Of a stretch of 64,000 bases of DNA, positions 59,059 to 63,866 are shown piece after piece (the stretch's first letter is position 1; the number at the start of each line of letters is the position of its first letter). The notes beneath the pieces were generated by a model, which searched no databases, had not been told where the DNA came from, and was given only the letters and a program-made list of their open reading frames with translations. Made by a program: the position numbers and the translations under genes. This stretch comes from Escherichia coli (GTDB lineage Bacteria > Pseudomonadota > Gammaproteobacteria > Enterobacterales > Enterobacteriaceae): assembly GCF_011045215.1 (NCBI RefSeq), contig NZ_CP049201.1. One strand, given 5' to 3'.

Positions 59059-60354
59059 TTAATTTTTCATTGCTTCGTTATGGGGCATGGTTGGGGCAAA
59101 CTCGCTTAACTGTGTATTTAACAAAGCTACCTGTGCATTATTGTTTTCAGACATCCATTTTCCGTATACCTGAAATACCATTTGCGCATCTGCATGGCCC
59201 ATCTGGTTTGCTATAAATGCCGGGTTAGCACCAGCTGTCAGCGACCAGCAGGCATAAGTATGTCTCGACTGATATGATTTTCGATGGCGGAGTCCGGCAC
59301 GTTTTATCGCTGCGTCCCACATCTGCCTTATTGAGTCAACGGTAAAATGGTCACCATAATTTTTTACTCTCGCTGACACTTCAGGTTGAAAAACAAAGGT
59401 GCATTTTTGTTTTTCTGTTCTGCCATACTCTCTGAGGTGAACATCAATGATATGCTCTTTGCTCAGTCTCGTTAATGTCATCTGACTCCGGAGAGCGTCG
59501 ATTGCTGGCTTAATAAGATGAATGACCCGATTGGTTCCCGCCTGTGTTTTTGGTACCGTGAAACGGTCTTTTGCTAAATTTCTCCTGATCATCATTGTTC
59601 CATTTTTCAGATCTATGTCCTCCCATCCAAGTGCACACAGCTCACCAGGGCGAACGCCAGTATAAACAGAAACACACCATAAATTTTTTGCTTGCTGATT
59701 TCTGCACGCATCGATAAGACGGATAAATTCTTCCCGCGAAAGAGGATCCGGAATGGTTCTTGATTCCTTTAATGGCGAGATCCCCTTAAACGGATTATCT
59801 GCCAGGTAACCGTTATCAACACCAAACTGGAACACGGCGTTAAGATTTGTCATGTAATTATTTACAGTTACAGCCGATCTCCCTGGTTGTGTAACAATAT
59901 AGTTACTTTTGGGGGTCTGGTATCCAGTCAGTAGCTCTTTACGAACCTCCAGTAATTTTTCTTTATTAATCGATGAGGCAAGATTTTTTTCACCGATTAT
60001 GCTCAGGATATTTTTGATGACGGCACGGTATGTGTTGAGTGATGTTTTGGCGACTTCAGTTTCTTTCAGTGCCAGAAATTTTTCAGCCAGTTCTTTTATG
60101 GTTAAATCTTGTCGGGCCTCACCAAATTTTTCCAGATTGCGTGAGGAGGGAAACTGTTTTGCATAGTCGAAAACACCAGTTTTTATTGCGTAACAAACAG
60201 AGGAGCGTAGTTCACCTGCAACGCGCCTGTTTTTTGCTGTGTCAGGAACCCCCAGATTTTCCCTGACTCTTACGCCTTTATAAACAAACCAGATACGTAA
60301 TTTCCCTCCATGGTTTTCCACGCCTGTCGGATATTTCATTTCAACTTCTCTCAT
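59059..60354 (-). CDS. Phage tyrosine integrase (lambda Int family), apparently full length
   Basis: 431-aa ORF (or 426 aa from the second Met); C-terminal catalytic region with HxxR (HRKSYQSRH) and a downstream Tyr; sits at the prophage/chromosome junction. Confidence 0.85.
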   Translation of the reverse strand: MREVEMKYPTGVENHGGKLRIWFVYKGVRVRENLGVPDTAKNRRVAGELRSSVCYAIKTGVFDYAKQFPSSRNLEKFGEARQDLTIKELAEKFLALKETEVAKTSLNTYRAVIKNILSIIGEKNLASSINKEKLLEVRKELLTGYQTPKSNYIVTQPGRSAVTVNNYMTNLNAVFQFGVDNGYLADNPFKGISPLKESRTIPDPLSREEFIRLIDACRNQQAKNLWCVSVYTGVRPGELCALGWEDIDLKNGTMMIRRNLAKDRFTVPKTQAGTNRVIHLIKPAIDALRSQMTLTRLSKEHIIDVHLREYGRTEKQKCTFVFQPEVSARVKNYGDHFTVDSIRQMWDAAIKRAGLRHRKSYQSRHTYACWSLTAGANPAFIANQMGHADAQMVFQVYGKWMSENNNAQVALLNTQLSEFAPTMPHNEAMKN

Positions 60355-60373: not shown

Positions 60374-60625
60374 TCAAGTAAGATGACGTCTTGGTCTCGC
60401 TGATGCCTGGCGCTCAATCCAGCGATCAATTTCTTCCAGGTTGTAAAAGCATGGACTGTTATCCCATGGCATACCGTCATGAGCGACATGCTTATATTCC
60501 CTTCCTTCCATAAACGATTTTTCCCGGGCCTTTTTTAACGTACCTTTTTTTATTCCTTTCAGCGCAATTAACTGCTCTTCGGATACCCATTTGCCGGGAG
60601 AGACAATCATGATTACTTCGCTCAT
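60374..60625 (-). CDS. Putative excisionase / small DNA-binding protein
   Basis: 83-aa ORF MSEVIMIVSPGKWVSEEQLIALKGIKKGTLKKAREKSF... directly upstream of the integrase, the usual xis position; no confident sequence match from memory. Confidence 0.5.
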   Translation of the reverse strand: MSEVIMIVSPGKWVSEEQLIALKGIKKGTLKKAREKSFMEGREYKHVAHDGMPWDNSPCFYNLEEIDRWIERQASARPRRHLT

Positions 60626-60697
60626 CGATTTCTTTATCTCTTACATCAGACGAGCGCCGGTTGCAGAATACCAGTCACAACCGGCGACAGTTGAACA

Positions 60698-63169
60698 TTA
60701 AGAATCAGCCTGACTCGGGATCAGTTTTTGCCAGATAACTGAAACGTATTTTGCCTGGTAACGGGCGTCATCAAGTGCATTATGGCGCTCACCTTCGAAT
60801 GGAATAGCCGTTCTGGGATCGAAGTCTATGGCTTTCCCCAGCTCAACGATTGTGCGTACATCGCGATCGTTGTAGTAACGCCACGGGCAGGGGATCCCCT
60901 GCCGTTCGTATGAACGGCGCAAAATCGTGTTGTCGAAGTTGGCTCCATTTCCCCAGACCTGAACAAAAAATTCACCGGAGTTTTCGTCGATAAATTCCCG
61001 CAATTGTAACAGTGCATCATCTAACGGGATTTCATCGGTCATAATGGCAGATTGCGCTTCGCGTGATTGCTTAAGCCACCATTTAATGGTGTCCCGATCA
61101 ATGACTCCGCCAGCAGTTTCCAGATCGATAGTCTTACTAAATTCCGGTCCCATATCTCCGGTTTGCGGATCGAAAAATATTGCACCTATTGAGATGATCG
61201 GGGCATCAGGATTTTTTCCCATGGTTTCAAGGTCGATCATTAGATGGTCACACGTCCTGCTGGTGGATGTGATTTCGTGATGACCGTTCACCTTAATTGA
61301 GTGATCTGCCGTCTCGCCAGTTTCATTATCGCTATTGTGATGCTGATTGCCGCCAGTGTTCTCCTTGTGTGGATGTTCAGCGCCTTCCATTTCCTCCGGA
61401 TCATCTTCCTGAACTTCAACCTGATACTCTTCATCGAATGTTTCTTGGTATGTTGCGTCGCCCATCACCGCGCCACAATCAGGGCAGTTGCCGCCGCCGG
61501 TCTGACCGCAGGCGGTGCAGACTTTTTCCACTTCCTGTTGCGCCACTGGTTCAGGCTGTTTCGTTTCTGGCTCGTTTTGTAACGCATTTGGGCTGTTTTG
61601 TTCCGCTTTTTGGTAGTTCCGTTCCGATTCATGCTGGTTCTGGTTCACAGAATCGCGGGTCTGGATCCCCTTAACCCATTTCGGATCATTCGGGTCACTA
61701 ATCCCTTCAACAAATTCACCACGTGATGCAGCAAGCAACTTATCGGCGTCAGGCTGGCTGATATTGGCTGCCTGCATAATTTTGTTTACTTCGTCAGCGG
61801 TAACTTTTATCGGCTCTGGTTGTTCTGAATCTTCAGCGGTATCTACATTTTGCGGTAAGCCCGTGTATGTGCCATTTTTTCGGGCAAAATATTCTTCTTT
61901 TGTGATTTCAGTGGCGCCAGCAGCCAGTGCCTTATCCAGACCAGAAAGTTTGTTTGCGCGACCGTATTTTTCTCCGTCCTTATCTGCGAAGAGGAAATAG
62001 AACGGCCCCTCACGCTCTACAGATGGTTCAGCTTCCGGCGCGGTTTCATTTTTTGGGATATCAGATACCTCAGTTTCCACTGCATCAGTTTGTGTTTCTG
62101 ATGACTGGAGAACATCAACAGTGCCCAGGTCTGTTTCTTCATTCTCAAACACGCCCTTTGTCGTCAGGTATTCGCAGATATATTTGTTCAGTGCTACGGG
62201 ATCTTTGTGAATGTCGATCGGACGCTCACGGACAAGGCCAAAAATAGTTTGGCGGTCGTAGCGAAGGGCATCAGGCTGTTTGCGCATTGATGCCGAGATA
62301 CGCTTCCAGTCTTCGCGGTCGTTGTCGATAACTTCTTTTTTTGCCCAGCGATGGATGCTGCCGTCAATGTTTCCGGCATCCACATCACCAGGCCAGAGAG
62401 CGTAGGCCAGTTCGTCATCCAGTGTTTTCCATGTCTGCTTGTATTCGCGATGAATGGCAGCAATGACCGGGCTGATTTTTCCTGTTGAATTTTCAGTGTA
62501 CTGTTGATTGGCTCTGGCGCGGGCGAGATCAACAACAGACGTGTATTTTCCGGTTTCCTTGCGTTCACCTTCGCGACGTTTTTTCCAGATGCGCATCTCT
62601 GTCTGAATTTCGGGCCATTTAGCACCAGGAATACATTTATGCTTAACCCACCCAATGGCGTGCAACTTAAGCTCCGGATACATGGCGTTAACTTCTGGCA
62701 TTTTCATCAACGCTTCAACGATATGTCCGTCGAATGTTGCCATGTCTTCCTGCAACAATTCCTGTGTGCTAATAACCATATCAACGGTGATGTTTTCACA
62801 TGTGTCGAACTTAACCATGACAGCGTTCTGTACTTCAGGGGCCAGCTTGTCAAAAGTGACGTTCATCGGATCGGATTCAGTCTCAACCGGGACAAAAGAA
62901 GCAGACTCCTCATCCCAGCGGTTTTCCTGCATATATTCAGCATCCCATGAATCGAGGGCAGGGCGGGGTATGCCAGGTTTATCCTCGCAGATAATAAATT
63001 TATAAGCGCAGTCCTGAGCAGCCGGATAATGTTCCAGGAACTGCCAGTGAAATTTTGCTCGAGCACGGCGTTCGTCGCCAGCTTCAATGGCTGTGGCTAC
63101 AGCCACCGCGCCTTCTCCCCTTGTTGCCAGTTCGTCAGGAATAGCGGCGCAAATAAAGACTTTACTCAT
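60698..63169 (-). CDS. YdfE-like large prophage nuclease: RecE-like segment, Cys4 zinc ribbon, acidic linker and C-terminal DnaQ-like DEDDh 3'-5' exonuclease domain
   Basis: 823-aa ORF; the segment DADKLLAASRGEFVEGISDPNDPKWVKGIQTRD resembles one I associate with RecE; CTACGQTGGGNCPDCG zinc ribbon; C-terminus has DEDDh-type motifs (MIDLETMG ... VWGNGANFDNTIL ... HNALDDARY). Confidence 0.7.
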   Translation of the reverse strand: MSKVFICAAIPDELATRGEGAVAVATAIEAGDERRARAKFHWQFLEHYPAAQDCAYKFIICEDKPGIPRPALDSWDAEYMQENRWDEESASFVPVETESDPMNVTFDKLAPEVQNAVMVKFDTCENITVDMVISTQELLQEDMATFDGHIVEALMKMPEVNAMYPELKLHAIGWVKHKCIPGAKWPEIQTEMRIWKKRREGERKETGKYTSVVDLARARANQQYTENSTGKISPVIAAIHREYKQTWKTLDDELAYALWPGDVDAGNIDGSIHRWAKKEVIDNDREDWKRISASMRKQPDALRYDRQTIFGLVRERPIDIHKDPVALNKYICEYLTTKGVFENEETDLGTVDVLQSSETQTDAVETEVSDIPKNETAPEAEPSVEREGPFYFLFADKDGEKYGRANKLSGLDKALAAGATEITKEEYFARKNGTYTGLPQNVDTAEDSEQPEPIKVTADEVNKIMQAANISQPDADKLLAASRGEFVEGISDPNDPKWVKGIQTRDSVNQNQHESERNYQKAEQNSPNALQNEPETKQPEPVAQQEVEKVCTACGQTGGGNCPDCGAVMGDATYQETFDEEYQVEVQEDDPEEMEGAEHPHKENTGGNQHHNSDNETGETADHSIKVNGHHEITSTSRTCDHLMIDLETMGKNPDAPIISIGAIFFDPQTGDMGPEFSKTIDLETAGGVIDRDTIKWWLKQSREAQSAIMTDEIPLDDALLQLREFIDENSGEFFVQVWGNGANFDNTILRRSYERQGIPCPWRYYNDRDVRTIVELGKAIDFDPRTAIPFEGERHNALDDARYQAKYVSVIWQKLIPSQADS

Positions 63170-63262: not shown

Positions 63263-63454
63263 TTAAAGACCTGCCGGGATTTCGATATTATCCTGGTGAA
63301 TAACTTTATCGACCGGGTAACAGTTACCGGGAATTTTCTGTTCGGTTGCTGCAGTCATACACTCCTGCATTGTCCTGTGAACACTGACTGCAATATCAAC
63401 TGGCTCTCCGGAAACAAGAAAAACTGTCAGAACAAGCGCAAATGCTGAATTCAT
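63263..63454 (-). CDS. ydfD: YdfD, small prophage lysis-associated protein
   Basis: ORF 63263-63508; start taken at MNSAFALVLTVFLVSGEPVDIAVSVHRTMQECMTAATEQKIPGNCYPVDKVIHQDNIEIPAGL (63 aa); 4-nt overlap with the dicB stop. Confidence 0.7.
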   Translation of the reverse strand: MNSAFALVLTVFLVSGEPVDIAVSVHRTMQECMTAATEQKIPGNCYPVDKVIHQDNIEIPAGL

Positions 63455-63639
63455 TGTGCACATCCTTTTGGCATCAGACGTAAACGAGCCAGCATTGAAA
63501 CAATGCATATTTTATTTAATAGCTCCCGTTCTTGTTTTCTCTTGTTAATGGCATCTTCAGTAAATACAGGGTTACTGATAGTGACACCAATTTCAAAACA
63601 ACCTTCAGACGTATTAACGTTTGGTAATAACGTTTTCAT
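63451..63639 (-). CDS. dicB: DicB, prophage-encoded cell-division inhibitor (acts with MinC)
   Basis: ORF 63451-63744; start taken at MKTLLPNVNTSEGCFEIGVTISNPVFTEDAINKRKQERELLNKICIVSMLARLRLMPKGCAQ (62 aa), matching DicB as I recall it. Confidence 0.85.
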   Translation of the reverse strand: MKTLLPNVNTSEGCFEIGVTISNPVFTEDAINKRKQERELLNKICIVSMLARLRLMPKGCAQ

Positions 63640-63808: not shown

Positions 63809-63866
63809 AAAAACGGCGGCAGAGCAGTCACGGAGTAAAACTGATACCGCCAAACGTCACCAGAAA
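63809..63866 (-). ncRNA. dicF: DicF small regulatory RNA (represses ftsZ and other targets) with its intrinsic terminator
   Basis: Minus strand reads TTTCTGGTGACGTTTGGCGGTATCAGTTTTACTCCGTGACTGCTCTGCCGCCGTTTTT, which matches the DicF sequence I recall, including the GC stem and U-run; lies directly upstream of dicB. Confidence 0.85.

Follow-up and report, generated by a model that had tools for sequence, protein, structure and literature searches.

A ydfE-type gene of Escherichia coli prophages that joins RecE-type modules to a predicted DEDDh exonuclease domain

Related nucleases and the prophage setting of the gene

The RecE/RecT pair is a workhorse of recombineering, and Rv2179c, the namesake of the PF16473 family, is an exoribonuclease of Mycobacterium tuberculosis. 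The region N-terminal to the nuclease domain of RecE has been described as of unknown function (PMC11611040). T4 DexA (PDB 8kel) degrades DNA in the 3'-5' direction and takes part in intron homing and also in scavenging of host DNA; its E. coli homologue EcD (HREX) cuts 5hmC DNA and gives protection from T4 (PMC12153337). Both are small stand-alone proteins; the protein studied here shares their Pfam and PHROG exonuclease family, but with a 640-aa N-terminal extension.

The window (the whole 64,000-nt stretch of E. coli contig NZ_CP049201.1 that was analysed) has in its ORF list an 823-aa frame on the minus strand at 60698-63169, with an ATG start and without internal stop, exactly where the preliminary description had placed a prophage nuclease. 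Residue identity marks it as the full-length counterpart of the K-12 pseudogene ydfE: 252 of 256 residues (98%) match the K-12 remnant across aa 1-256, as far as its IS2 insertion. PHROG 2082 ('exonuclease') matches it end to end (aa 1-822 of 823), and we annotate it as an intact ydfE-type gene for a predicted modular exonuclease.

The host element is a Qin-type lambdoid prophage, inserted beside rspB, and all features discussed here lie on the minus strand. At the prophage end, next to rspB, is a tyrosine integrase gene (int, 59059-60354; window ORF list and annotation of relatives). Directly downstream of the ydfE-type gene is xis (60374-60625), an ORF whose counterparts in Tritos, PhiR42_1 and RefSeq relatives bear the annotation excisionase, and directly upstream is ydfD (63263-63454), an ORF annotated by RefSeq as a lysis protein at the same locus; the position between xis and ydfD was given correctly in the preliminary description. 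Farther upstream come dicB (63451-63639), a cell division inhibitor gene recognized from its translation and from annotation in relatives, and the small RNA gene DicF (63814-63865; Rfam RF00039, 72.5 bits, E 3.9e-15). The one-strand order is DicF-dicB-ydfD-gene-xis-int, and that of Rac is kilR-ydaE-racC-recE-recT-...-xis-int; the gene occupies the place equivalent to that of recE, between kil-type genes and xis-int. Scanned for promoters and terminators, the surroundings of the gene yielded no excess over shuffled sequence; the two weak plus-strand promoter matches were fewer than shuffles gave.

The ydfE-type gene is among the commonest E. coli prophage genes, not a rare one: of 5426 complete E. 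coli genomes, 3536 (65%) have it at ≥80% coverage, often in multiple copies per genome. It is also intact in six independent phage records (HannyBb, PhiR42_1, Tritos, mEp460, Evi and PPompW), with the genes of the first three 99% identical to that of the window. Given this distribution, the frame is not an artefactual fusion of two ORFs, an eventuality raised in the preliminary description. Many carriers are defective prophages. The family is already catalogued, as PHROG 2082 and by the Pfam domains YdfE_N/YdfE_C and Rv2179c-like, and genes of this type are routinely mislabelled 'exodeoxyribonuclease VIII'. Literature searches on ydfE, on Rv2179c-like proteins and on DEDDh together with RecE in prophages returned no study of this protein. 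The exact 823-aa sequence had no record in the contig index, and relatives stood in for it. A homologue search with aa 1-345 gave nearly all partial E. coli fragments, because the gene falls at assembly breaks; a search of 50% representatives was the more informative source of relatives.

The N-terminal scaffold and the modules common to RecE

The first 345 residues (62135-63169) form a confidently folded scaffold of three subdomains, without a catalytic signature and with no recognizable structural relative. Proteins 83-99% identical to aa 1-345 carry YdfE_N (PF27430) and YdfE_C (PF27432); these profiles are newer than the Pfam release used to scan the window protein, to which they are assigned through those near-identical proteins. 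Identity to K-12 YdfE and the two domains together place the protein in the YdfE family.

RecE and the window protein are alike in overall plan: both are large, and in both a C-terminal nuclease follows a long N-terminal part that is not catalytic. BLASTP against K-12 RecE aligned aa 262-625 with RecE 278-591 (E 9e-62), rising to near-identity from about aa 473, which bears out the RecE-like segment of the preliminary description. The match ends just short of the RecE nuclease domain, with none past RecE residue 591. Upstream, aa 173-345 have their homologous counterpart in RecE 188-360 (probability 98.7% by hhalign), whereas the first about 170 aa are unrelated, belonging to YdfE_N in the window protein and to Exonuc_VIII in RecE. 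In Pfam scans, K-12 RecE carries PF06630 and PF12684, and the window protein matches neither PF06630 nor the PD-(D/E)XK domain PF12684/DUF3799; in place of the latter stands the DEDDh domain, with predicted opposite polarity. The NCBIfam RecE equivalog NF007259 reaches 283.4 bits against a cut-off of 1269, covering aa 246-625 only (model positions 271-602 of 877). By the marks of RecE or exodeoxyribonuclease VIII, a full-length NF007259 match and a PF12684 domain, the protein is not a member. The two loci differ as well in what follows, with recT after recE in Rac and none after the window gene.

Between scaffold and nuclease domain, aa 346-636 consist of linkers, including a 160-aa stretch common to Rac RecE that contains a Cys4 ribbon and an acidic tract. 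The first part, aa 346-465 (61775-62134), is by composition an acidic linker with a short segment (about aa 385-440); the segment has no clear K-12 RecE counterpart, and aa 346-465 as a whole are gapped or barely similar in RecE alignments. The RecE-common segment proper, defined by BLASTP, spans aa 466-625 (61295-61774), of which aa 473-625 show near-identity to RecE about 452-591; at the DNA level, gene positions 1425-1867 have 78% nucleotide identity with the RecE gene. Three elements of this segment recur in RecE. (i) A conserved peptide, KLLAASRGEFVEGISDPNDPKWVKGIQTRD, lies at aa 477-506 (61652-61741); that it is a partner-binding motif we only infer. (ii) The Cys4 zinc ribbon of the preliminary description, CTACGQTGGGNCPDC, is present at aa 551-565 (61475-61519; C551, C554, C562 and C565). 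The same CxxC-x7-CxxC pattern occurs in K-12 RecE at residue 517 (C517...C531) and in some relatives, and is absent from the other DEDDh-type members P0122, P0140 and P0243, so that the ribbon is an optional module. (iii) The strongly acidic linker, likewise noted earlier, is a low-complexity stretch recognized by composition at aa 577-636 (61262-61441), which includes the junction to the nuclease domain; the acidic tract spans around aa 577-600, with D/E making up 45% of aa 581-600. Since canonical RecE has both ribbon and acidic tract, neither is special to the window protein, and both are inherited modules of RecE type rather than additions.

The C-terminal exonuclease domain

PF16473 (Rv2179c-like) matches aa 642-813 (60731-61246) with E 3.2e-67 over model positions 2-177 of 177, and the Pfam scan of the C-terminus gave, besides this, a weak RNase_T match and no others. 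Residues D646, E648, D746, H796 and D801 align with DexA D7, E9, D119, H186 and D191, and these five DEDDh columns are invariant in 8/8 aligned sequences. The domain scan could have gone against the preliminary description, which had proposed a DEDDh rather than a PD-(D/E)XK fold; it found the exonuclease fold at the C-terminus, with all five catalytic residues. On this profile and residue evidence we assign aa 642-813 to the DEDDh exonucleases, Rv2179c-like subfamily. The closest relative with a solved structure is T4 DexA: over the aligned stretch, the PDB match 8kel (E 1.6e-6) has 100% identity with T4 exonuclease A. Identity to DexA is 26%, and several DexA insertions are missing from the window protein. 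By analogy with DexA, the domain would be an active exonuclease of 3'-5' polarity with a preference for DNA over RNA.

The family name, taken from the M. tuberculosis exoribonuclease, suggests another substrate, as do the RefSeq name '3'-5' exoribonuclease' given to fragments and the processed sRNA DicF that the operon yields. An exoribonuclease might process or turn over the operon transcript, or remove RNA or oligonucleotide signals of host defences. We hold this to be distinctly unlikely: a single-protein search of solved structures (E≤1) returned T4 DexA and its mutant only, both DNA enzymes, a family profile search (E≤0.01) contributed a single further structure, an unnamed 3'-5' exonuclease, and none deposited as Rv2179c, and the domain is grafted on a DNA-recombination scaffold at the place where a DNA nuclease would be.

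EcD, in the same exonuclease family, offers a precedent of a different kind in its cleavage of 5hmC DNA and its protective effect against T4 (PMC12153337). A nuclease of defence or superinfection exclusion, degrading the 5hmC DNA of incoming T-even phages and sparing host DNA, would suit a gene that is prophage-borne and extremely widespread. The residues of DexA proposed to recognize 5hmC are not kept, however, W152 being replaced by Y766 and D169 by F783 (flanked by D782 and D784), and at the DexA tetramer residue D90, whose loss marks the dimer-only state, the window protein retains Asp where EcD has Ala; the HREX criteria rest on simulation and mutagenesis of DexA (PMC12153337), and such a mismatch counts as weak negative evidence. 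The comparison with HREX was made through DexA only, EcD being known from the primer ends MIDTET...TIPETY in the supplement, which no fetched protein matches. In addition, PADLOC gave no significant match, the gene sits within the repressed early-left operon with no convincing promoter of its own, and the RecE-type scaffold would be left without a role. Together these points make a defence nuclease improbable.

Purifying selection acts on both folded ends of the protein, and the acidic linker is neutral. The dN/dS ratio is 0.13-0.31 over the folded parts (0.17-0.31 for the DEDDh domain, aa 642-813), 0.20-0.29 for aa 466-580 and 0.30-0.38 for aa 346-465; it reaches 0.84-1.07 in the acidic linker (aa 581-636). 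Decay is nonetheless frequent: relatives P0004, P0008 and P0084 have internal in-frame deletions, another copy is split across three ORFs, and the K-12 copy is truncated by IS2. This decay, and the defective state of many carrier prophages, could be taken to mean that the protein is a chimera without function, thrown up by mosaic recombination between prophages and passively carried. We regard that as very unlikely indeed, with dN/dS near 1 confined to the linker, all catalytic residues kept, the gene intact in particle-forming phages, and scaffold and DEDDh domain combined independently with different N-termini.

Exchange of C-terminal modules and the proposed role

Relatives of the scaffold carry one of three C-terminal modules: a RecE-type PD-(D/E)XK nuclease, a Rad52-fold annealase domain, or a DEDDh domain. 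Gene neighbours track the type of module. After the PD-(D/E)XK form P0131 comes a gene that PHROGs identifies as RecT-like (PHROG 561, E 3.5e-101), although BLASTP did not align this ORF significantly with K-12 RecT. The annealase form P0184 has a Mu Gam-like gene behind it, and the DEDDh forms examined all lie directly before xis or int. The scaffold-annealase fusions (PHROG 2489/7838, e.g. P0184 and P0156) share the YdfE_N/YdfE_C scaffold and the operon position with the window protein and differ in their C-terminus, which has a Rad52-like annealase fold and is not a nuclease; their PHROGs label 'exonuclease' appears to be a carried-over name.

No annealase was found with DEDDh forms at any of nine loci examined. 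In the window, which ends 830 bp past the gene, there is none between the gene and xis/int and none upstream, in line with the preliminary description, although with so short an upstream stretch this counts for little by itself; nor is there one in Tritos, PhiR42_1, mEp460 or Evi, or at four other DEDDh-type loci. Tritos is a complete relative of 46 kb with a 99% identical gene; its annotation lists no annealase, and none of the ten ORFs left unassigned there matches an annealase PHROG. At these loci the system does not look like a two-component phage recombinase, which would have an annealase of RecT, Red-beta, Erf or Sak type adjacent to the nuclease or elsewhere in the phage, and a nuclease resecting 5'-3' to leave 3' single-stranded tails; the DEDDh fold predicts 3'-5' polarity by analogy with DexA.

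The YdfE-type protein belongs to a known kind, of which it is a variant by domain swap. The reading that we favour, and put at about an even chance, is that it belongs as a modular protein to the wider RecE family, with a DexA/Rv2179c-type DEDDh exonuclease in place of the usual PD-(D/E)XK 5'-3' nuclease, and that it serves in 3'-end DNA processing during lytic growth. In favour are its identity and domain make-up, its recE-like position, the way gene neighbours track the C-terminal module, the kinship with DexA, the selection on its folded ends and its intactness in functional phages and in 65% of complete E. coli genomes. Lying on the DicF-dicB-ydfD strand, the gene would be expressed only once the prophage repressor is lifted; co-transcription is suggested by the published K-12 dicB operon. 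The scaffold and the RecE-common middle would bring the protein to the partner or substrate of RecE, most likely dsDNA ends or recombination intermediates, a shared target being suggested because these modules are common to RecE-type and annealase-type relatives. The DEDDh domain, whose catalytic residues are present, would then strip nucleotides from 3'-OH ends by two-metal catalysis as T4 DexA does, trimming 3' tails or flaps or forming 5' overhangs on phage DNA in lytic growth. Since these phages encode no annealase, the products would probably pass to host recombination functions. A target shared with RecE is as yet without mechanistic content, because the scaffold has no recognizable structural relative and no function is assigned to the N-terminal region of RecE itself (PMC11611040). 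The role could equally be anti-recombinational, because 3'-5' degradation destroys the 3' tails used by annealing-type recombination.

A wider reading, which we advance tentatively and think unlikely, is that the N-terminal scaffold of YdfE and RecE acts as an all-purpose targeting hub by binding a host factor or DNA ends, that lambdoid phages fit it with a nuclease of 5'-3' or 3'-5' polarity or with a Rad52-like annealase, and that its DEDDh version, carried by most E. coli genomes, defines an annealase-independent pathway of 3'-end processing. If so, this pathway could represent a novel way for phages to recombine or repair their DNA, or a deliberate antagonist of 3'-tail-dependent recombination and defence by the host or rival phages, and the purpose of the long-mysterious N-terminal region of RecE would be revealed. 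If the protein is only a 3'-trimming nuclease, the result is an ordinary one. The equivalent of RecE about 188-591 is found here on a nuclease of predicted opposite polarity, and in relatives the scaffold is found on an annealase; being found on different modules, it is experimentally separable from the catalytic one. Knowing if the YdfE-type protein favours, redirects or prevents recombination, or defends against other phages, would bear on prophage mosaicism, Stx-phage evolution and tool development.

The nuclease also occurs alone. Genes for exonucleases of 180-190 aa, 57-75% identical to aa 640-823, are found in Salmonella, Klebsiella, Citrobacter and Enterobacter prophages, and start at M(N)xLMIDLETMG, the motif that opens the fused domain. 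At the Salmonella loci examined they take the same slot, directly upstream of xis-int, but without the scaffold, and their neighbours are a DndB-like gene and a predicted dNMP phosphatase gene; the nuclease is thus evidently able to work alone, which counts against the favoured reading. The YdfE-type protein could be a scavenging enzyme that in lytic growth degrades host or broken DNA from 3' ends for nucleotide pools, its scaffold being irrelevant or only regulatory. Host-DNA scavenging is documented for DexA, and in Salmonella the DndB-like gene separates the stand-alone homologue from a predicted deoxyribonucleoside 5'-monophosphate phosphatase gene, which is the second gene upstream of it. 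This account leaves unexplained a strongly conserved 345-aa scaffold that is common to RecE-type and annealase-type proteins, and we know of no wholesale degradation of host DNA by temperate lambdoid phages; we rate it as quite improbable. RefSeq names the stand-alone genes '3'-5' exoribonuclease/exonuclease'. One E. coli candidate for a stand-alone exonuclease, P0331, was rejected as the last piece of a frameshifted full-length gene.

An intact ydfE gene in a dicB-type operon

The 823-codon ORF (60698-63169, minus strand, ATG start) lies, as the preliminary description had placed it, between the excisionase gene xis (60374-60625), which adjoins a tyrosine integrase gene (59059-60354), and ydfD (63263-63454). 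Beyond ydfD come dicB (63451-63639) and the DicF antisense sRNA gene (63814-63865, minus strand; full-length match to Rfam RF00039, 72.5 bits); the latter is on the same strand as dicB and ydfD and upstream of both, which confirms the 823-aa gene as part of a dicB-type operon. The E. coli chromosomal genes ynfA, rspA and rspB are followed by the integrase end of a lambdoid prophage of the Qin type, inserted at rspB, matching the annotation in K-12 and close relatives. K-12 has the corresponding gene as a pseudogene, ydfE, interrupted by IS2. The window protein agrees with it at 252 of the first 256 residues, which makes the window gene an intact ydfE allele. A promoter scan around the gene detected no separate promoter for it. 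Judging from the dicB operon as reportedly described in K-12, it would be switched on along with DicF, dicB and ydfD, and only once repression is lifted. The 72-nt spacer from the exonuclease stop codon to the xis start (60626-60697, minus strand) holds a GC-rich 10-bp stem-loop, CGCCGGUUG...CAACCGGCG, with a minimum free energy of -19.7 kcal/mol (z -1.8 against shuffles) and no U-tract.

A DEDDh exonuclease on a RecE-type scaffold

The C-terminus, previously read as a DEDDh fold, contains the single strong Pfam domain of the protein, Rv2179c-like (PF16473), matched over the full model length at aa 642-813 (E 3.2e-67). Searched as a single sequence, the protein gave just two solved relatives, PDB 8kel (E 1.6e-6) and 8ken (E 1.5e-5); over its aligned sequence, 8kel matches T4 exonuclease A (DexA) with 100% identity. 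When the protein is aligned with DexA and six homologues, D646, E648, D746, H796 and D801 fall at the five invariant DEDDh positions. By analogy with DexA, a 3'-5' DNA exonuclease with a part in intron homing (PMC12153337), the domain would act on DNA with 3'-5' polarity; an RNA substrate is a less probable alternative. A defence nuclease in the manner of EcD (HREX), the E. coli DexA homologue acting on 5hmC-DNA, would be a plausible kind of role but finds no support: D90 is retained in the DexA alignment and the proposed 5hmC-recognition residues are not kept (W152 is Y766, D169 is F783), PADLOC gives no match, and the gene is located in a repressed operon.

The RecE-like segment is real: aa 262-625 align with K-12 RecE 278-591 (BLASTP, E 9e-62), with similarity becoming near-identical from about aa 473 and ending at aa 625, and the shared stretch has 78% identity at the DNA level. 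Within it are a conserved peptide (aa 477-506), the Cys4 ribbon (C551, C554, C562, C565) and the acidic tract, the last two as first described, and canonical RecE has all three. The ribbon was not found in the other DEDDh-type relatives compared, and is thus an optional inherited module, not a hallmark. Between acidic linkers, aa 385-440 (EREGPFYFLFADKDGEKYGRANKLSGLDKALAAGATEITKEEYFARKNG; 61850-62015, minus strand) have no clear counterpart in K-12 RecE.

The protein is nonetheless not a RecE. It scores 283 bits against the NCBIfam RecE equivalog, whose cut-off is 1269, it lacks the PD-(D/E)XK domain, and its locus lacks RecT, so that the label "exodeoxyribonuclease VIII" frequent in phage records is a misnomer. 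By sequence it is a genuine member of both the DEDDh Rv2179c-like/DexA family and the YdfE family. The sequence family is already catalogued (PHROG 2082, Pfam, RefSeq "exonuclease"), and literature searches found no functional study of the protein or of ydfE.

With aa 1-637 as query, the 50%-identity representatives were searched exhaustively, giving 248 relatives; the long ones among these were classified by phmmer with purpose-made module queries. All module combinations occur: YdfE-type N-terminus with DEDDh (the window protein), RecE-type N-terminus with DEDDh (homologues P0128, P0136, P0140, P0243), YdfE-type N-terminus with RecE-type PD-(D/E)XK nuclease (P0131, P0201, P0225), and canonical RecE. 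What appears distinctive is that a RecE-type scaffold carries an exchanged nuclease, predicted to have the opposite polarity, and that no annealase accompanies it. The protein is chiefly of value for probing the unexplained N-terminal region of RecE.

Neighbours, spread and decay

Neighbouring genes track the C-terminal module. In Rac, recE is followed by recT; the P0131 gene (YdfE scaffold with PD-(D/E)XK) overlaps the RecT-like gene that comes after it (PHROG 561, E 3.5e-101), and that of P0184, a scaffold-annealase, has a Mu Gam-like end-protection gene after it. The DEDDh-type gene lies directly upstream of xis or int in every locus examined (the window, phages Tritos, PhiR42_1, mEp460 and Evi, and the loci of P0128, P0243, P0140 and P0122), and at none of these is there an annealase, in keeping with the absence of an adjacent annealase first reported for the window. 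In the complete Tritos genome none is annotated and PHROGs found none among ten unassigned ORFs, and the RefSeq record closest to the window, with 99.7% identity, carries a defective prophage of about 15 kb that likewise lacks one.

The objection that the gene might be a fusion artefact is not upheld: phages HannyBb, PhiR42_1 and Tritos carry the 2472-nt ORF at 99% identity, and mEp460, Evi and PPompW/Stx2a phages carry it at 87-92%. The gene is common, not exotic: among 5426 complete E. coli genomes, 3536 have it at a threshold of at least 80% coverage, the median being two copies and the maximum 10 places in one genome. Most database proteins in the homologue searches are contig-end fragments, suggesting that short-read assemblies often break at this repeated prophage gene.

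When the window gene is compared pairwise with those of mEp460 and Evi, the scaffold has a dN/dS of 0.13-0.15, the segment in common with RecE 0.20-0.29 and the DEDDh domain 0.17-0.31, whereas the acidic linker is at about 1. This selection pattern, and the independent recurrence of the architecture, contradict the reading of the gene as a dead chimera. Between Evi (L012 3001-5481) and mEp460 (L011 3001-5472) the scaffolds are near-identical (dS 0.06) while for the DEDDh domains dS is about 1; lineages have exchanged the nuclease module inside one gene, as in ordinary lambdoid mosaicism. Decayed copies are common: one is split into three ORFs of 456, 157 and 183 aa (L017 737-3127), P0004, P0008 and P0084 have lost the first catalytic motif through in-frame internal deletions, and K-12 ydfE (L005 1079-1999) is truncated by IS2. 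"Stand-alone" exonuclease entries from E. coli can be fragments of a decayed full-length gene.

Origin of the nuclease module and proposed role

The nearest non-fused relatives of aa 640-823 are stand-alone proteins of 180-190 aa from Salmonella, Klebsiella, Citrobacter and Enterobacter (57-75% identity), which start with the motif M(N)xLMIDLETMG at the same point as the fused domain; in Salmonella these genes stand in the same position, just before xis-int. The fusion may have arisen when the linker of a RecE-type gene became connected, through a deletion or an illegitimate join, to a stand-alone exonuclease gene downstream. The scaffold, for its part, may bring the protein to DNA ends or recombination intermediates, the one support for this being the occurrence of RecE-type nucleases and annealases on the same scaffold. 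With modest confidence as to role, we favour 3'-end processing in phage DNA metabolism during lytic growth, reliant on host functions. Nucleotide scavenging is a less probable role, the one pointer to it being the Salmonella neighbour genes: in one Salmonella prophage (L014 3066-6570) a predicted deoxyribonucleoside 5'-monophosphate phosphatase gene and then a DndB-like gene stand immediately before the stand-alone DEDDh homologue, which is itself next to xis-int, and this arrangement could hint at nucleotide salvage.
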